Shown here: positions 19,815 through 61,084 of the stretch, in pieces
Numbering within the stretch: the first letter of the stretch is position 1
Layout: the number at the start of each line of letters is the position of its first letter
Virus record (IMG/VR): IMGVR_UViG_2721755676_000001
Source of the DNA: a virus
Taxonomy: Duplodnaviria > Heunggongvirae > Uroviricota > Caudoviricetes
DNA: 64,000 bases
Strand: one strand, 5' to 3'
Notes under the pieces: model-generated
What the model was told of the DNA's origin: nothing
Databases searched by the model: none
Seen by the model: the letters and a program-made list of their open reading frames with translations, nothing else
Translations under genes and position numbers: made by a program

Positions 19815-19869
19815 CCTGCTTCTGTATATATAAATAATAAGTAACTTATTAAATATATACGGAAGCAGG
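19815..19869. repeat. 55-bp near-perfect palindrome (copy A)
   Basis: CCTGCTTCTGTATATATAAATAATAAGT|AACTTATTAAATATATACGGAAGCAGG; second copy at 52829-52881; outer inverted repeat GGTCTGG/CCAGACC. Confidence 0.7.
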
Positions 19870-49542: not shown

Positions 49543-49962
49543 ATGCTAAATTATCATGACAATACGCGTTCTATGCAGACGATCCGCACCAATACTGCGG
49601 TCATCGACAGCTTTCCTATGCGTATTCACAACAGTGAAGACGCAGTAGAAGTGCGACGTATGTTGTGCCGTGAATCAGCTAACCGCCAGCACTTCATCGT
49701 CACTTTTAAGAGCGATGTGGCGCGTGCCGAAAAGATCTCTAATTCTACGTCACTGGTTAAACCGTTGGCCGAGGTTGTCGCTAACGGTAAACGAACCTCT
49801 TTTGTTTTAGATGTTGCTGAACAATATCCTGACTTGAAGTGTTTAGATCGTGATATTTCTTCACGAATCAAACAAGTTGTAGAGTCTTTTATGAAGAAAT
49901 TCTGTAAAATCGATGATATGGAACCATCAACGGCACAGAATACTTCATGGCACCATCTCTAA
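49543..49962 (+). CDS. hypothetical protein (139 aa)
   Basis: ORF after a 220-bp hairpin-rich intergenic region. Confidence 0.45.
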   Translation: MLNYHDNTRSMQTIRTNTAVIDSFPMRIHNSEDAVEVRRMLCRESANRQHFIVTFKSDVARAEKISNSTSLVKPLAEVVANGKRTSFVLDVAEQYPDLKCLDRDISSRIKQVVESFMKKFCKIDDMEPSTAQNTSWHHL

Positions 49963-50720
49963 TTGGTCAGGCGAACAGATTAATCCCTGAAATAGAAGAC
50001 TACAGCAAGGTCTTGTCTGAAATGCCGAGAGCGACGAGAATTATCGCTCTCGGTGAGTTCTATTTTATCTCCCGAGGTTTCGATCTAATTCGATTTACCG
50101 AATACGAGCTTGTTGATTCGGCCTATGAACGCTGTATTGTTGGCGAGTGTCTTGAGTCATGTGATCCTGATTACCAAGAGCAGGAAGTTAAGCGACTCAA
50201 ACGTGCTGGTTACACACCTCTTGAGATAGGAGCAGAAATTGAATCCTACAAGTTGCATGTGGGGCAGCCAGTCCAAACAGTCTTCCGCGTGGCCTACTGC
50301 GAGTTTCCAATCAAGGATAAATCTGGAGTAAAAGTCAGCGCCAAGCAGATTAGAGGGGTTTTTACTCATGCTGATTATATGGGATTAGGCATCGCAAGTT
50401 TTGCTTACCTTTATCTCGTAGATAAGTATCAGTACTTGGTTTGCGATACGTTACAGACGGTAAAAGGCGCAACTCTTTGGGCTGTGAGTATGCGCAAACA
50501 TGGACTGGTCGAAATTTACGATACGAAGAACGAAAATTTTATAGAGGAATTGGGTGAGGATGCCTGTGGCGTAAGTGGTTTTATTCCGTGGGATATCGGT
50601 AAGTCTGACGGAGGCCAGATGCGAAGACGTGAAGAGTGGGGGACTAATAAAATCAATCTCACCCCAGGTGCTTGTACTCATATAGTGAACATTCTGACTA
50701 AACGATCTATGAATCAATAA
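49947..50720 (+). CDS. hypothetical protein (257 aa)
   Basis: Overlaps the preceding gene end; followed by a strong terminator. Confidence 0.45.
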   Translation: MAPSLIGQANRLIPEIEDYSKVLSEMPRATRIIALGEFYFISRGFDLIRFTEYELVDSAYERCIVGECLESCDPDYQEQEVKRLKRAGYTPLEIGAEIESYKLHVGQPVQTVFRVAYCEFPIKDKSGVKVSAKQIRGVFTHADYMGLGIASFAYLYLVDKYQYLVCDTLQTVKGATLWAVSMRKHGLVEIYDTKNENFIEELGEDACGVSGFIPWDIGKSDGGQMRRREEWGTNKINLTPGACTHIVNILTKRSMNQ

Positions 50721-50869: not shown

Positions 50870-51538
50870 ATGACCAAGATCTTTGTGGTTGGCGGCACAA
50901 AGGGCGGGCCTGGCAAATCCACCGTTGCCCAGCAAATTGCCGTTTGCCTGAAAGTCAAAAAGAAGAAGAAGGTTTATATTACCGATATAGATATTCAGCG
51001 CACGACAACGAGCTGGTGTGAAGACCGTCGACAGAACGAAGACCTTGAGCTGATTCCTTTTGCATACGTTCAGGATGACATCATTAAGCACCTAAAATCG
51101 CTTCAGGGTAGAGCTGAGTTTGTAGTGGTAGATGCTGGTGGCTTCGACTCCGAAATTCAGCGACAAGCGATGCTGATGGCTGACGTTATCATTATCCCGC
51201 TGCGTCCTAAGCGTCGTGATTTGAAATCTTTACGTGACATCGATCCTATTATCGACAATGTTCGCAATGTAAACGATAAAGTGAAGGTCCGCGCGGTCAT
51301 GAACCAGTGCCCGGCTTTGCCATCACAAGTGTCTCGCATTCTGGCGGCTAAAGAGATTGTTGAGACGTTTGGAATCGAGTCTGCGCCAGTCAATCTATAT
51401 AACCGCAACGTCTATGATGATGCGGAAGAGTCTGGTCGTTCTATCTTTGAAATGACCGGTAGCGAGCGCGACAAAAAGGCGGAAGCCGAGTTTGAAGAAT
51501 TTGTAGATTATCTGTTGAGTCTGGAGGAAGAAGAATAA
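50870..51538 (+). CDS. ParA-family partition ATPase (small, Type Ib-like)
   Basis: Deviant Walker A GGTKGGPGKST; 222 aa with no N-terminal HTH; acidic tail. Confidence 0.85.
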   Translation: MTKIFVVGGTKGGPGKSTVAQQIAVCLKVKKKKKVYITDIDIQRTTTSWCEDRRQNEDLELIPFAYVQDDIIKHLKSLQGRAEFVVVDAGGFDSEIQRQAMLMADVIIIPLRPKRRDLKSLRDIDPIIDNVRNVNDKVKVRAVMNQCPALPSQVSRILAAKEIVETFGIESAPVNLYNRNVYDDAEESGRSIFEMTGSERDKKAEAEFEEFVDYLLSLEEEE

Positions 51539-51897
51539 TGTCCATGAAAATGGGTGACCTAGCAAAGCGCAAAGAGCCTGATGCACCGGCTAAGAACACA
51601 ACTCCTTTGCGCCAACCAGTCAGACCACAGGGACGCCCGACTCGTGGCAAAGAGAAAATTAAAAGCCGCACAATGTCACTGGAGGACGAATACTTCGAAC
51701 TGCTGGAGATGATGAAGTTCATCCCTCGCTTCGAGAAGTTCACTCGTTCTGACGTGATTCGAGCAGCCATTTTCCATCTGGCAGAGAAGTCACCGCAGGA
51801 AATCGAGGACATCGTGAAATTGAATGAGGCGATCACCGCTGCCGATGTCACGATGCGTACCGATGAAATCAAACGAGAGTTGATGAAGAAAGGTTAA
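51538..51897 (+). CDS. putative ribbon-helix-helix centromere-binding partner (ParG-like)
   Basis: ATGA overlap with parA; basic disordered N-terminus and RHH-like KSRTMSLEDEYFELLEMM segment. Confidence 0.55.
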   Translation: MSMKMGDLAKRKEPDAPAKNTTPLRQPVRPQGRPTRGKEKIKSRTMSLEDEYFELLEMMKFIPRFEKFTRSDVIRAAIFHLAEKSPQEIEDIVKLNEAITAADVTMRTDEIKRELMKKG

Positions 51898-51902
51898 AAA
51901 TC

Positions 51903-51933
51903 ATGCATTGGCGCGTACATTGCGCCAATGCAT
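51903..51933 (-). terminator. terminator hairpin (12-bp perfect stem) between convergent genes
   Basis: ATGCATTGGCGC gtacatt GCGCCAATGCAT; T-run only on the minus-strand side. Confidence 0.6.
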
Positions 51934-51949
51934 AACTACAGTGTCAGCT

Positions 51950-52717
51950 TTATGCCGCGCTAACACTATGTTCAGTCCTAACCACCCCAACCTTCACAAA
52001 AGGGCTACCGTAGCTTGGTGGCTTCTTGATTAATTTGCCTACATACAGTTTTCTAATATGCTCATCGGCTATTCTGCCAACAAATTCATAACGTTTTGTG
52101 TCGGGGCCAAGAGCTATATCCCTTGTAAAGTACTGCTGAGAACCGGCTTTGACCCAGCATTCAATCTGATAAACTTCCATTATCAGCCCACCATATGTAG
52201 CGTAGGCATATTTGAGATTCTCGTCTCTTGGAACCTTTGCCCATACGCCACGCGTAGCTTCATATAATGCCAGAGCGGACATTCCTGACTTGTAGGTGCT
52301 GTTTAGCAGGAAGGCAAGACCGGCGTGCTCAGGAGCAATTTCAGTTTCCTCTTGCAGCACTAAGTGATGGTAGGCGTCCAGTGATATTCTGCCCATCATG
52401 GAACCACTTCCTCGTACCTTATTCGTAAGCTCTCCGACCCCCATAAGGTCGATGCATGTCGCCTCAACAAGTTTGGCTGTGGTTTCATCCATACCATGAC
52501 GAAGTATATCTATGCCTAATTTTTTATTAGCCAAAAGTTCTTTGATCCGCATGGATTTGGGAGAGTCATCGGGATACTTGATGTGATCGAGACAACGAGT
52601 CGATTTGCCTTTTCCTATGTAAAACGGTCTTTTCATCTTGTCTTCTGTATCATAGAGACAGTAAACATAGTATTTAGCCTTATCCAATGATCTCGCGTAT
52701 ACCGATAAATCGTCCAT
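51950..52717 (-). CDS. GIY-YIG nuclease-domain protein (255 aa)
   Basis: N-terminal YYVYCLYD...RPFYIGKGK motif; C-terminal ~150 aa of unknown type. Confidence 0.6.
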   Translation of the reverse strand: MDDLSVYARSLDKAKYYVYCLYDTEDKMKRPFYIGKGKSTRCLDHIKYPDDSPKSMRIKELLANKKLGIDILRHGMDETTAKLVEATCIDLMGVGELTNKVRGSGSMMGRISLDAYHHLVLQEETEIAPEHAGLAFLLNSTYKSGMSALALYEATRGVWAKVPRDENLKYAYATYGGLIMEVYQIECWVKAGSQQYFTRDIALGPDTKRYEFVGRIADEHIRKLYVGKLIKKPPSYGSPFVKVGVVRTEHSVSAA

Positions 52718-52828
52718 TATTGCATCTCTTTGCTACTGACTAATGCGTTCTATTTTACACATAAGTTTTTAATCAATTTAACAGGCTCAAAGTGTAGAGC
52801 TTCTGGGCGTCTAAGACGACAAGTTATG

Positions 52829-52881
52829 CCTGCTTCTGTATATAAATAATAAGTAACTTATTAAATATATACGGAAGCAGG
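52829..52881. repeat. 53-bp near-perfect palindrome (copy B)
   Basis: Same sequence as 19815-19869 minus 2 bp; lies in the divergent region before the replication module. Confidence 0.7.
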
Positions 52882-52988: not shown

Positions 52989-53738
52989 GTGAGCCACATG
53001 AGCCAAATCTTTTTCGATACCATCGACAACGACCAGTACGACTTCATGACAGAGTGGAATACCGCTGTTATGGACAAGTGGGTCGCTGAAAACATTGGTT
53101 TGTCGCGCTGTAAAGACGAGGCTGAACTCTTCGAGACGAAGTGGTTTGATTACCGCGACATGCATCCTCTCATGGCCACCTGTCTTTTTACGGAGGCATA
53201 CAAACGTCAGTACTCAAATATCATGCTGACGCACGGTCGCGAACACTTTGAAACAGCTCCGTTCACCACCGGGTTAAAACGCCTGCCTTATCAGGAGTTG
53301 TCGACTGCCAATAAAACGTCGCTATGGAAAGCACGCCAGTTTGCGGATCGCTATTGCTGCTCATACGACTACTTTATCTCCACCGTTCTTTCCGCAGCTG
53401 CACGACGGCTGTGGGACAAGCTGCCGCGCCCACAGCATTTATGGCAGCCAGAACTGATTGAGATATTTGAAGAGAAATTAGCCAGACGCGCAACAACCCG
53501 TCTGGATGACTCTCTGGTTAGCTTTAAGCATATGGGAGACATGCAGTTCAACCCGATTCAGGAAAGCTATTTTGAGTGGATTCTGGAGCGTTTGCGCACC
53601 ATCCCTCGCAGCAAGCGCATACGCGCAATTTTCTCCGCTATCTGGCTAATGGAAATCGTTCCAGAGCGCCTTATTTCCGCCCACTTTCCAGAAGAACTGG
53701 AAGAAGCACGGCGGTTTATTGATCCCCTATCTAATTAA
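52989..53738 (+). CDS. hypothetical replication-associated protein (start GTG 52989 or ATG 52998)
   Basis: First gene of the replication operon; class II element TGATAAGTAAGTAA upstream; no NTP-binding motif. Confidence 0.45.
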   Translation: MSHMSQIFFDTIDNDQYDFMTEWNTAVMDKWVAENIGLSRCKDEAELFETKWFDYRDMHPLMATCLFTEAYKRQYSNIMLTHGREHFETAPFTTGLKRLPYQELSTANKTSLWKARQFADRYCCSYDYFISTVLSAAARRLWDKLPRPQHLWQPELIEIFEEKLARRATTRLDDSLVSFKHMGDMQFNPIQESYFEWILERLRTIPRSKRIRAIFSAIWLMEIVPERLISAHFPEELEEARRFIDPLSN

Positions 53739-53781: not shown

Positions 53782-55122
53782 ATGACCGAACTTTGCCATA
53801 CAGGACGCGGGCTGTCCGAAGAGTTTGATGAAGATTTCCAGAACAGACTGACGGCATATTTTTGTCGTGATCACGAGTTTCTTACTCGTGCGGGAGATCT
53901 GGTTGTGCCTAGCCAATTTGCCAATGCGGCCAATGCCATATTGGTTAATATGGTTTCGGGCTATTACCGTATGTACAAGAGCGCGCCCTCTTCATCTGCA
54001 ATTCTGGATATGCTTAAGCGTGCGAAACGCGATAAGACTATCCGTGAGGAACTATTCGCCGATGTTGTTGCTGCGTTTAAGCGCATTCTTGCAGAAAAAT
54101 TGTCCGATACCTCGTACATGGTTGACCAGGTATCAACCTTCGCAAAAAGTGTAGCGTTTGATGATGCTCTGATTAAGGCTGCTGAACTGAAAGAGAAAGG
54201 CGACTTTCACGGGGCGATGGCAATCATGGCCAAGGTTCAGCAGATTGGATCGAACGAAGCGACCGGAATCTATGACTACTACACCTCCGCAAGTGAGCGA
54301 TTGAAAGCGCGTGAATATGAGGCTTCAGAGGAGTATGTACCAAACAGTATTACAACTGGACTCCCTCTTCTCGATAGGTTGCTGTACCAAAAAGGCTGGG
54401 CAAAGCGCGAAATGGTGCTCTTCATGGGGTTCGCTAAATCCGGTAAATCGACCGCAATGGGTGAGTTTTCCATAAACGCAACACTTGCTGGCTACAATGT
54501 TCTGTATCTCTCGCTGGAGGTTCACACCACCATTTTATCCGACCGTTTTGATGCAAGATTGTCGGAGACGGAAATGTCCAAGCTGGTGGAACGGCGCGAT
54601 GAGGTTCATCGTAAGTTGGCAGAGTTGGGAGCCACGAAGGGGATTGGTAGTTTGTGGGTGGTTGAGCGTCCGTCAGGAAGTATGTCACCGGCAGATCTGG
54701 ACCGTATGCTTAACAGCATGAAAGCCAATGGCATGGTGCCTGACATGGTTGTTGTCGACTACGCAGATTTGATGCGTGCCAGTTATGATCTTCGTGATGA
54801 TCGCGCCAACATTCGTAGTATCTACACCGATTTACGTGCTCTTTATGACAAGCATAACGTTGCTGGGATCACGGCATCGCAGACAAACCGTGAAGGTGGC
54901 GCGTCAGAAGTTGCCACAATGATGCACGCTGCCGACAACATCGAAAAAGTACGTATTGCTGACCTGGTAATAACGATCAACAAAACCGAAGAAGAAGAAG
55001 CGAAAGGAGAGGCTCGTCTCTACTTTGCTGGTTCACGTAACCAGCAGGGAGGGATCAGCATTCGCGTTAAACAAAACCTCGAACAAATGCGCTTCATTGA
55101 GCGAATCTTAGACGTTACCTAA
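53782..55122 (+). CDS. DnaB-like replicative helicase
   Basis: RecA-type core: Walker A GFAKSGKST, Walker B VVVDYADLM, ITASQTNREG. Confidence 0.8.
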   Translation: MTELCHTGRGLSEEFDEDFQNRLTAYFCRDHEFLTRAGDLVVPSQFANAANAILVNMVSGYYRMYKSAPSSSAILDMLKRAKRDKTIREELFADVVAAFKRILAEKLSDTSYMVDQVSTFAKSVAFDDALIKAAELKEKGDFHGAMAIMAKVQQIGSNEATGIYDYYTSASERLKAREYEASEEYVPNSITTGLPLLDRLLYQKGWAKREMVLFMGFAKSGKSTAMGEFSINATLAGYNVLYLSLEVHTTILSDRFDARLSETEMSKLVERRDEVHRKLAELGATKGIGSLWVVERPSGSMSPADLDRMLNSMKANGMVPDMVVVDYADLMRASYDLRDDRANIRSIYTDLRALYDKHNVAGITASQTNREGGASEVATMMHAADNIEKVRIADLVITINKTEEEEAKGEARLYFAGSRNQQGGISIRVKQNLEQMRFIERILDVT

Positions 55123-55203
55123 AAAATAAGCGTGGAGAACACCTCCACGCTTGATTCATTGGTGAAACAACTTTTCTTTTGCCAAACCACAAAAGAAAAA
55201 CAC

Positions 55204-56385
55204 ATGAGCCTTTATGTTATATCAACATTTAGGTTGGTCACAATATTGCCTGTTAAAAGTGGAATTATCGTGAGCGAGCTGAAAGAGCTAATTACCGAAT
55301 TAGATTTTGAACAATGGTTGGATACTGAAGGTATCGTTTATCGACGTGGAGGCGTGAGTACTCGCGGTCGTGAAGTGAATATCAAGGAGTGTCCGGTATG
55401 TGGCAGCTCCAACTGGAAGGTATATTTCAATCTGACCAGTGGCGTCGGTAAATGCTTCGCTGGTGATCATCCCGAAGAGATTCAGTTCAATAAGCTGGTC
55501 TTCCTCAAGCACTACAGCGGCAAATCACGACGACAGTTCGAGGAATATGTGCAGAACGCCCTTCTTTCCCAGGGGTGGGCACCAAAGAAAGAAGAGCTAG
55601 TGCTTGCAAGCACAGTCGAGTTAGAGGGGCCAGTTGCACTCCCTCGTCATTACGAGCTTCCTATAGATGGCCGTCTTCCAGACTATCTGGTTGAACGAAA
55701 CATATCGCCTGAAATGGCAAAGTATTTTGACCTACGATACTGCGTCGAAGGCAAGTACGCCTATGTAGATCCGTATACAGATCAGGTTAAAGGACAGATA
55801 TTCGATATGCGAATACTGATACCGGTTTACGATCTGGATGGGGTAATGAAGACATTTCAGGGACGAGACATTACCGGTACAGCAGAACGCCGCTACCTCT
55901 TTCCTATGCAACTTCCAGCTTCAGGTAAGTTTCTCTACAACGGCCATAATGCAGTCGGCAAACAGACTGTAGTTGTCTGTGAGGGGGCGTTCGATGTTAT
56001 GGGGGTTAAACGAGCTATTTTTGACGAAGAAACATTACGTGATTACGTGGAACCAATAGGAACGTTCGGGATGCATCTATCTGGTAACACCACTCAGGAT
56101 GCAGAAGATCAGTTAGGCGCGTTCCTGACGCTCAAGGCGCGTGGGTTACGTAATGTGATCATGATGTGGGATAGTGAAAAGCAAGCTATACGCAACACTA
56201 TGGCCGCAGCCAGGCGACTGACCAGTATCGGTCTTAATGTCAAAGTTGCGTGTTTGGGTGAGGAAGGACTCGACCCGGGCGGTGCAACGCCAGAACAAAT
56301 TATCAAAGCCTATTATCGGGCAAAACCGTATACCAAACAGTTGGAGTTGCAAAGCAAGGTTTTGGGCATTAAGGCTCTATCATAA
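55204..56385 (+). CDS. DNA primase (zinc ribbon + Toprim)
   Basis: CPVCGSSNW...C..GDH zinc-binding element and VVCEGAFDVMG Toprim motif; ATG 55204 chosen because the listed 55132 start spans the upstream regulatory motif. Confidence 0.7.
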   Translation: MSLYVISTFRLVTILPVKSGIIVSELKELITELDFEQWLDTEGIVYRRGGVSTRGREVNIKECPVCGSSNWKVYFNLTSGVGKCFAGDHPEEIQFNKLVFLKHYSGKSRRQFEEYVQNALLSQGWAPKKEELVLASTVELEGPVALPRHYELPIDGRLPDYLVERNISPEMAKYFDLRYCVEGKYAYVDPYTDQVKGQIFDMRILIPVYDLDGVMKTFQGRDITGTAERRYLFPMQLPASGKFLYNGHNAVGKQTVVVCEGAFDVMGVKRAIFDEETLRDYVEPIGTFGMHLSGNTTQDAEDQLGAFLTLKARGLRNVIMMWDSEKQAIRNTMAAARRLTSIGLNVKVACLGEEGLDPGGATPEQIIKAYYRAKPYTKQLELQSKVLGIKALS

Positions 56386-60526: not shown

Positions 60527-60601
60527 GATGGTGTAGCTCAGCGGTAGAGCAGTTGGCTGTTAACCAACTGGTCGGTGGTTCGAATCCACCCACCATCGCC
60601 A
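60527..60601 (+). tRNA. tRNA-Asn (anticodon GTT)
   Basis: Canonical cloverleaf with T-loop TTCGAAT and 3' CCA; sequence differs from chromosomal E. coli tRNA-Asn as recalled. Confidence 0.9.
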
Positions 60602-60606
60602 ATTTA

Positions 60607-60693
60607 GGGGAGTTAGTCCGTAGGGGCAGCGGAGTAGACTGTAAATCTACTGTCATGGCGACTCGGGTGGTTCGACTCCATCACTCCCCACCA
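60607..60693 (+). tRNA. tRNA-Tyr (anticodon GTA)
   Basis: Class II tRNA with long variable arm, anticodon loop CTGTAAA, 3' CCA. Confidence 0.85.
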
Positions 60694-60697
60694 AATT

Positions 60698-60773
60698 GCC
60701 GGTTTAGCTCAGTTGGTAGAGCGCCTGCCTTGTAAGCAGGATGTCAGCGGTTCGAGTCCGCTAACCGGCACCA
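60698..60773 (+). tRNA. tRNA-Thr (anticodon TGT)
   Basis: Perfect cloverleaf with anticodon loop CTTGTAA, T-loop TTCGAGT, 3' CCA. Confidence 0.9.
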
Positions 60774-60845
60774 ATACAACGATAAGATCATTACGGTTAA
60801 TCGTCGTTCATGTGCACAATGACTGGTCGAAAGGTAGTGATCTTA

Positions 60846-60995
60846 CCGTTGTGGTGGATTCGCAGACTGATGCGATAGCTTTCTTGGATGTTAGGGAAAT
60901 GCGGCCGCAAATCTTCCCTTTCGCGAGCGGTGATCGTCCGTAGTCCTAATTGGCTGCACCGTATGCCGGAGATTCAGTACCGGCCACCACAACGG
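60846..60995 (+). ncRNA. structured RNA-like element between tRNA-Thr and tRNA-Ser (function unknown)
   Basis: 12-bp closing stem CCGTTGTGGTGG/CCACCACAACGG around internal hairpins; ends 2 nt before tRNA-Ser; no canonical tRNA fold. Confidence 0.3.
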
Positions 60996-60997
60996 CC

Positions 60998-61084
60998 GGA
61001 GAGTAGGGAGCATGGTGCTCAAGCGGTCTTGAAAACCGTCCCATTGCGCAAGCGATGATGGTTCGATTCCATTACTCTCCGCCA
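60998..61084 (+). tRNA. tRNA-Ser (anticodon TGA)
   Basis: Class II tRNA with 3-bp D stem, long variable arm, anticodon loop CTTGAAA, 3' CCA. Confidence 0.85.

Follow-up and report, generated by a model that had tools for sequence, protein, structure and literature searches.

A divergent PD-T4-3/CMoRE-family nuclease as probable anti-phage defence cargo of an SSU5-like Escherichia coli phage-plasmid

A lone minus-strand gene (51950-52717) between the partition and replication modules of an SSU5-like E. coli phage-plasmid encodes a 255-aa nuclease that, on sequence grounds, is a divergent subfamily member of the PD-T4-3/CMoRE restriction endonucleases and probably serves as anti-phage defence cargo, a reading to which we assign a probability of about 0.82. 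The window, by which we mean the whole 64,000-nucleotide stretch of DNA analysed, belongs to the SSU5 group of phage-plasmids, because the DNA around the gene shares 99% identity with Escherichia phages CMS-2020a and PhiR41_1 and with many ~110-kb E. coli plasmids, and 82% with Salmonella phage SSU5. Earlier publications already cover the nuclease family, how it works and its occurrence on SSU5-group phage-plasmids; a recent preprint gives PD-T4-3 and PD-T7-5 among the DefenseFinder calls for such elements of E. coli and Shigella (10.1101/2025.09.12.675607). The present analysis contributes the assignment of this divergent protein, the observation of its short lid loop, the anatomy of the slot in which its gene sits and the evidence that cassettes are exchanged there.

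The nuclease gene starts with ATG and its product begins MDDLSVYARSLDKAKYYVYCLYD...PFYIGKGKSTRCLDH, the N-terminus containing the segment KYYVYCLYD...PFYIGKGKSTR. The stretch holding Y33-I-G, R41, E85 and N99 is encoded at 52406-52684, and a putative modified-base-sensing domain of predicted PUA-like fold (approximately residues 107-247) at 51977-52399, both on the minus strand. The gene is convergent with a plus-strand ParA/MipZ-type ATPase gene (parA, 50870-51538) and, directly 3' of it, a parB-like gene for a 119-aa protein (51538-51897). On its other side lie plus-strand genes for a 249-aa protein (52989-53738), a DnaB-like helicase (53782-55122) and a primase (55132-56385). The 119-aa protein has no Pfam match and its role as a partition adaptor is assumed purely from position; in phage Cyrano the gene carries the annotation "RelE/ParE putative toxin", and elsewhere it is listed as hypothetical. 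An earlier note on this DNA had reported a 255-aa gene with an N-terminal GIY-YIG motif, transcribed against its neighbours, ending at a terminator with a 12-bp stem and inserted between the partition and replication modules. The reading frame and active site are indeed intact, the flanking genes all run on the opposite strand, and the insertion is borne out by a relative (NZ_CP148383.1) that has just 32 bp at this position.

The terminator (51903-51933, minus strand) was also recovered. Its arms (51903-51914 and 51922-51933) form a perfect 12-bp stem around a 7-nt loop, 16 nt beyond the nuclease stop codon and, read on the plus strand, 6 nt 3' of the parB-like stop. Folded as RNA of the minus strand, it reaches -25.5 kcal/mol (z = -4.2 relative to shuffled sequences) and is followed by GAUUUUU; a simple terminator scanner did not list it, and folding confirmed the hairpin. 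In the related element CP088502 (locus L007, 1613-1619) the loop at 51915-51921 is reverse-complemented, with GTACATT against AATGTAC in cassettes that are otherwise near-identical, which is a small hairpin-loop inversion. The 111 bp upstream of the gene (52718-52828, minus strand) are cassette-specific, form part of the high-identity cassette described below and presumably hold its promoter and ribosome-binding site. An AAAGAG sequence sits 9 nt ahead of the ATG, a scan of this region for a consensus sigma-70 promoter found none, and the gene's own promoter is thus predicted only. Alignment of upstream regions revealed a motif common to enterobacterial chromosomal and plasmid homologues; the window carries no more than a weak version of it, and a promoter is therefore not assignable for the phage-plasmid copy. 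In four enterobacterial loci whose proteins are 73-79% identical to the nuclease, the upstream DNA reads CTTAAGTTC...GCCGATA(A/G)T..AAAT, a candidate promoter or operator; the upstream sequence of the phage-plasmid copy is largely unlike this motif region.

To which family does the protein belong? PD-T4-3 (Vassallo et al., 2022, as cited in PMC12923530) has been renamed CMoRE and is a single-protein type IV restriction endonuclease, in which a GIY-YIG N-terminal domain cuts DNA and the C-terminal domain binds 5-hydroxymethylcytosine (5hmC) in crystals (Liu et al., 2026, PMC12923530). Systems of this type derive from E. coli ECOR68, APEC O1 and O157:H7 (PDB 9U7U, 9U7Z, 9U75, and 9U8D), and the native PD-T4-3 gene protects the clinical E. 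coli isolate NILS69 from Tevenvirinae. The PADLOC model for PD-T4-3 (PDLC04031) matched residues 11-231 of our protein with E=1.3e-23 and 81.9 bits, covering positions 11-238 of its 256 (89%). A sequence search of the PDB returned solely the CMoRE chains 9U7U/9U75, with residues 12-230 aligned to 17-243 at E=2e-15, and a profile built from 48 homologues raised the CMoRE match to E=2.4e-23 across both domains. Identity to CMoRE is ~32% by tblastn and ~30% to any characterised member. No other gene of the window is CMoRE-like. The PHROGs search placed the whole protein in phrog_5356, of unannotated function (E=1e-99), and the NCBIfam search gave no match.

Our protein and CMoRE agree from end to end in sequence, profile and fold. 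Both are products of single genes of about 250 codons, with an N-terminal GIY-YIG domain that contains an extra tyrosine and the catalytic Arg and Glu, followed by a homologous C-terminal sensor domain. In the 48-sequence family alignment Y17, Y19, Y33-I34-G35, R41, E85, and N99 are invariant, and Y17, Y19, Y33, R41 and E85 align with Y17, Y19, Y31, R39 and E93 of CMoRE. The third tyrosine of the "GIYxY-YIG" motif, found in all CMoRE systems (PMC12923530), is present here as Y17-V18-Y19. The earlier note had called the C-terminal domain uncharacterised, which no longer holds, as it is homologous to the characterised CMoRE sensor domain, with which it has core motifs in common, and it matches PUA-like readers. 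The gene stands alone in its cassette with no cognate methyltransferase, the single-component layout of the family. Pfam recognised residues 32-104 as PF22945, a LEM-3/ANKLE1-like GIY-YIG domain (E=5.5e-7, 30.1 bits against a cut-off of 27). No ankyrin or LEM domain was found in the protein; PF22945 is a domain label only and implies no functional equivalence to LEM-3. A LEM-3-like repair nuclease was rejected as the primary reading, since the homology is to a restriction enzyme.

Proteins of the subfamily (50-79% identity, ~246 aa) are widespread in Gammaproteobacteria. They lie within a wider two-domain superfamily, a continuum for which clustering at 50% identity gives 632 representatives at E<=1e-10. 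Chromosomal homologues in diverse Gammaproteobacteria are solitary and sit among housekeeping genes with no methylase adjoining, as expected for type IV enzymes; when defence islands were sought around them (Providencia, Shewanella and others), only one locus proved to be near such an island, of the AlpA/Fic kind. That these homologues are mostly outside obvious islands weighs against the defence reading, as do the low identity to characterised members, the altered lid and sensor loops and the negative promoter scan. Two-domain homologues with ~28% identity over 85-88% of the protein also occur in lytic jumbo phages of Serratia (Moabite, locus L017, 2968-3732) and Pectobacterium, with partial matches in Klebsiella phage N1M2 and Pseudomonas phage OBP. 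Depositors annotated these as GIY-YIG or "homing" endonucleases, and they may be modification-dependent nucleases used in phage-phage competition.

In CMoRE the lid between α2 and α3 is an autoinhibitory loop of 15 residues that includes a run of four acidic ones, and mutation of these yields a toxic enzyme (Liu et al., 2026, PMC12923530). In our protein this loop is shorter by five residues (HIK-----YPDDSPKS against HMRGEVAAVDDDELLN) and keeps only D50-D51 of the acidic run. Residues 44-60 include four acidic and four basic side chains, and the short loop recurs throughout the subfamily. The full autoinhibitory loop with its four acidic residues is not found here. An acidic loop is ascribed to "most" members of the family (PMC12923530); as it is not universal, a short loop is compatible with membership, although regulation may differ from that of CMoRE. 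The sensor domain of our protein carries a four-residue insertion, YKSG, among other loop changes. CMoRE functions only as a tetramer, a dimer of dimers with interface residues V92 and L96 (PMC12923530); the first of these corresponds to V84 here, whereas L96 is replaced by C88, an invariant cysteine in the subfamily, and R80 corresponds to R73. A nine-residue disordered C-terminal tail and carriage on a phage-plasmid further distinguish our protein. It is conceivable, if on balance doubtful, that these features mark a distinct CMoRE subfamily with a truncated safety-catch and a remodelled sensor, perhaps directed at other or broader modifications, and, separately, that its location defines a hitherto undescribed slot of SSU5-like elements, dedicated to the exchange of defence cassettes and anchored by the parB 3' end and a palindrome.

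Such differences bear on specificity, which is where the realistic uncertainty lies. CMoRE degrades solely DNA that contains 5hmC or 5-glucosyl-hydroxymethylcytosine (5ghmC), and T4 with unmodified cytosine escapes (PMC12923530). Its cut is CN11/N9G and leaves 2-nt 3' overhangs. An enzyme of the same family and with the same defensive role could instead have a sensor that reads a modification other or broader than these, for example the N6-carbamoylmethyl-adenine of Mu or other hypermodified pyrimidines or purines, in which case its targets would not be T-even phages, or not only those. Identity of ~32% to CMoRE, the insertions and deletions in the sensor domain, truncation of the acidic lid that in CMoRE limits activity on ordinary DNA, and the size and continuity of the superfamily all lean in this direction. 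So does a homologue from Capnocytophaga, PD-T4-3Capno (48% identical to PD-T4-3), which cuts T4 and Mu DNA and leaves T4-GT7 uncut (PMC12366544). By its description this enzyme resembles ours in family and as a modification-dependent nuclease encoded by a lone gene, and differs in that DNA of T4 (glucosyl-hmC) as well as of Mu (mom-modified adenine) is cut, which shows that specificity is plastic within the PD-T4-3 family. Against this, all members characterised to date, whose identity to PD-T4-3 is 48-100%, depend on cytosine modification in their restriction of T-even phages, and core sensor motifs are common to our protein and CMoRE. We regard a different specificity within the family as rather improbable, though it deserves to be kept in view.

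The surroundings of the gene support its reading as defence cargo. In comparisons with Cyrano, SSU5 and four further relatives, homology ends at 51895 and resumes at 52819-52829, and these breaks define a 933-bp cassette (51896-52828, with the nuclease gene on its minus strand) that runs from the parB-like stop codon to a conserved palindrome, with a GC content of 43.5% against 48% in the flanks. The last 66 nt of the parB-like gene are 88-98% identical in all relatives, and divergence begins inside its stop codon, which is TAA here and TGA in the others, so this codon marks the left border of the slot. Identical borders were found in eight elements. Relatives carry at least six unrelated cargos in this slot and also an empty allele, the last in NZ_CP148383.1, where the 32 bp run from the parB stop to the palindrome. 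Cyrano carries a DUF2971 protein (PADLOC candidate PDC-S31) alone, NZ_CP073997.1 combines a DUF2971 protein (PDC-S31) with PD-T7-5 (E=1e-139), and SSU5 has three genes, PDC-S31/DUF2971 among them. A KAP-family NTPase (PDC-S49) occupies the slot in an O104:H4 plasmid (NZ_CP022085.2), and several elements have versions disrupted by insertion sequences. Two further cargos are unannotated minus-strand genes, one of 350 aa in NZ_MT773673.1 (locus L005, 1659-2711) and one of 225 aa in NZ_CP019283.1 (locus L014, 1437-2114); neither has a Pfam or PADLOC match, and their position makes them candidate defence genes. Every alternative cargo has its own distinct hairpin right after the parB stop. The interval between parB and the palindrome is therefore a defence-cargo hotspot of the phage-plasmid. 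It resembles the hotspots of temperate phages and satellites such as P2 and P4 (PMC13586616), where unrelated defence cargos likewise interchange at a fixed intergenic site with conserved borders, and differs in its location on an SSU5-like phage-plasmid, where partition and replication genes flank it and the parB stop codon and a 53-bp palindrome are its limits. A non-exhaustive literature search found no description of this slot.

Related backbones number roughly 730 in PLSDB. Among 5,426 complete E. coli genomes, 263 contain the backbone region and 106 the cassette, which was located on plasmids in every case and on no chromosome; ~35-40% of E. coli relatives with the backbone thus carry the cassette and ~60-65% lack it. 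Its presence on plasmids in 106 genomes indicates that it is tolerated by Dam+/Dcm+ hosts, and stable carriage in such E. coli argues that 6mA and 5mC, as in Dam/Dcm-methylated DNA, are not substrates. In CP088502 the cassette is 98-100% identical to ours although the flanks are only 73-90% identical, and the tract of high identity ends just past the palindrome. The same pattern recurs in several other backbones of 86-90% overall identity, and near-identical cassettes in diverged backbones imply recent movement between them. That movement does not depend on the nuclease, since unrelated non-nuclease cargos share the same borders. Exchange likely proceeds by homologous recombination between the conserved sequences on either side, the 3' end of parB on the left and the palindrome on the right.

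These data also bear on the proposal, made in the earlier note, that the gene may encode a homing endonuclease of the I-TevI/Seg type. Such an enzyme would cut genomes that lack it near the junction of parB and the palindrome and be copied there by repair. The GIY-YIG catalytic domain, the approximately fitting size of the protein, its presence or absence between two conserved genes, the near-identical cassette in diverged backbones and the annotation of distant jumbo-phage homologues as "putative homing nuclease" would all accord with homing. However, the C-terminal domain is a CMoRE-like reader of modified bases and not a sequence-specific DNA-binding module. Unlike I-TevI and SegA-G, the protein has no linker, zinc finger or helix-turn-helix: Pfam at E<=1 gave no match to NUMOD, IENR1, zinc-finger or helix-turn-helix domains, and the PHROG homing endonuclease match was insignificant (E=0.28). 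Its family, moreover, is widespread as solitary chromosomal genes, and close homologues stand among housekeeping genes in diverse Gammaproteobacteria. The polymorphism need not stem from the nuclease either, because at least six unrelated cargos that are not nucleases replace one another in the slot. The tract of high identity stops on one side at the conserved 3' end of parB and on the other shortly beyond the palindrome, and since that 3' end is about as conserved (88-98%) in cassette-less relatives, its higher identity is no evidence for co-conversion of flanks. We consider homing very improbable, and it was rejected as a primary reading for these reasons. The broader alternative in the same note, a nuclease effector, stands in the broad sense. 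Two of the checks it proposed, with domain models and by comparison of relatives, gave a GIY-YIG domain (PF22945) and the PD-T4-3 model (PDLC04031) with no homing DNA-binding domain, and a site polymorphic among relatives, with empty and alternative-cargo alleles; the findings it named as grounds for doubt were not encountered, as the homology points to a restriction enzyme instead of a repair protein, and some relatives lack the gene.

Equally improbable is a nuclease that serves not host defence but the phage-plasmid life cycle or competition between elements, for example by degrading DNA of the host or of a competitor plasmid during lytic growth in the manner of T4 EndoII, or an inactive remnant: attack on cytosine DNA would be suicidal for an element whose own DNA is unmodified, the gene is dispensable, as ~60-65% of related E. 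coli phage-plasmids lack it, and the catalytic residues and both domains are clearly conserved; EndoII-like degradation of host DNA was accordingly rejected as a primary reading.

The palindrome at the right border of the slot (52829-52881) has 26-nt arms with 88% complementarity and folds at -30 kcal/mol (z = -8). The earlier note had the gene abut one copy of a 55-bp palindrome. A copy is adjacent, but it lies 111 bp upstream of the nuclease start codon and measures 53 bp; the 55-bp copy is at 19815-19869. The two copies are 96% identical, each forms a long hairpin (z ~ -8) with GC-rich ends and an AT-rich centre, and they lie ~25-30 nt 3' of the end of a plus-strand reading frame or, for the copy at 52829, of the end of the cargo slot. 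This copy is followed by UCUUUU, whereas the copy at 19815 lacks a U-run. The palindrome is present in all slot alleles, the empty one and that of SSU5 included, and therefore belongs to the backbone and not to the cargo. A terminator (including the ancestral one of parAB), a partition or operator site, and a recombination anchor were considered as its function.

How might the nuclease act? As long as the phage-plasmid is maintained in its plasmid state, the nuclease would be made from its own putative promoter in the 111-bp upstream region, insulated from parAB by the convergent hairpin. By homology with CMoRE, its C-terminal PUA-like reader would bind a flipped-out hypermodified base in incoming phage DNA, most probably the 5-hydroxymethyl- or glucosyl-hydroxymethyl-cytosine of T-even phages. 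The reader would retain the DNA and the GIY-YIG domain, through Y17, Y19, Y33, R41, and E85, would then cut it. Host and phage-plasmid DNA would contain canonical bases plus Dam/Dcm methylation only, and as this DNA lacks hypermodification it would go unbound and a partner methylase would be unneeded. Defence would be direct and not abortive, and the 0.93-kb cassette would be swapped among phage-plasmid backbones, likely by homologous recombination through its flanks. The Mu result for the Capnocytophaga homologue and the altered loops leave room for other specificities. Coupling of a PUA-like reader to a nuclease has parallels among type IV enzymes such as the EVE-HNH protein VcaM4I and those with McrB N-terminal domains; in contrast to these, the nuclease here is GIY-YIG and not HNH or McrC, the domain order differs and sequence similarity is undetectable.

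RefSeq currently lists the protein as "LEM-3-like GIY-YIG domain-containing protein" or "hypothetical", and re-annotation as a probable modification-dependent restriction enzyme would be appropriate. Should the defence reading be true, ~2% of sequenced E. coli, those that carry this phage-plasmid variant, would withstand T-even-type phages, a point of relevance to phage therapy. The short-lid subfamily would offer a natural experiment on how CMoRE-type enzymes spare unmodified DNA, and a possible source of enzymes for 5hmC detection with other properties. The slot between parB and the palindrome is a defined place in which to seek new defence genes, beginning with the 350-aa and 225-aa cargos.

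Upstream of parA, the interval 49543-50720 looks like a second variable slot. In the window and in PhiR41_1 it holds two plus-strand reading frames of 139 aa and 257 aa with no Pfam match; Cyrano has a KacT-type acetyltransferase toxin with its antitoxin at this site, and several plasmids have a DUF1778 antitoxin gene. A plus-strand tRNA cluster lies at 60527-61084 and comprises Asn-GTT, Tyr-GTA, Thr-TGT, and Ser-TGA, three of which are confirmed at the Rfam gathering score.
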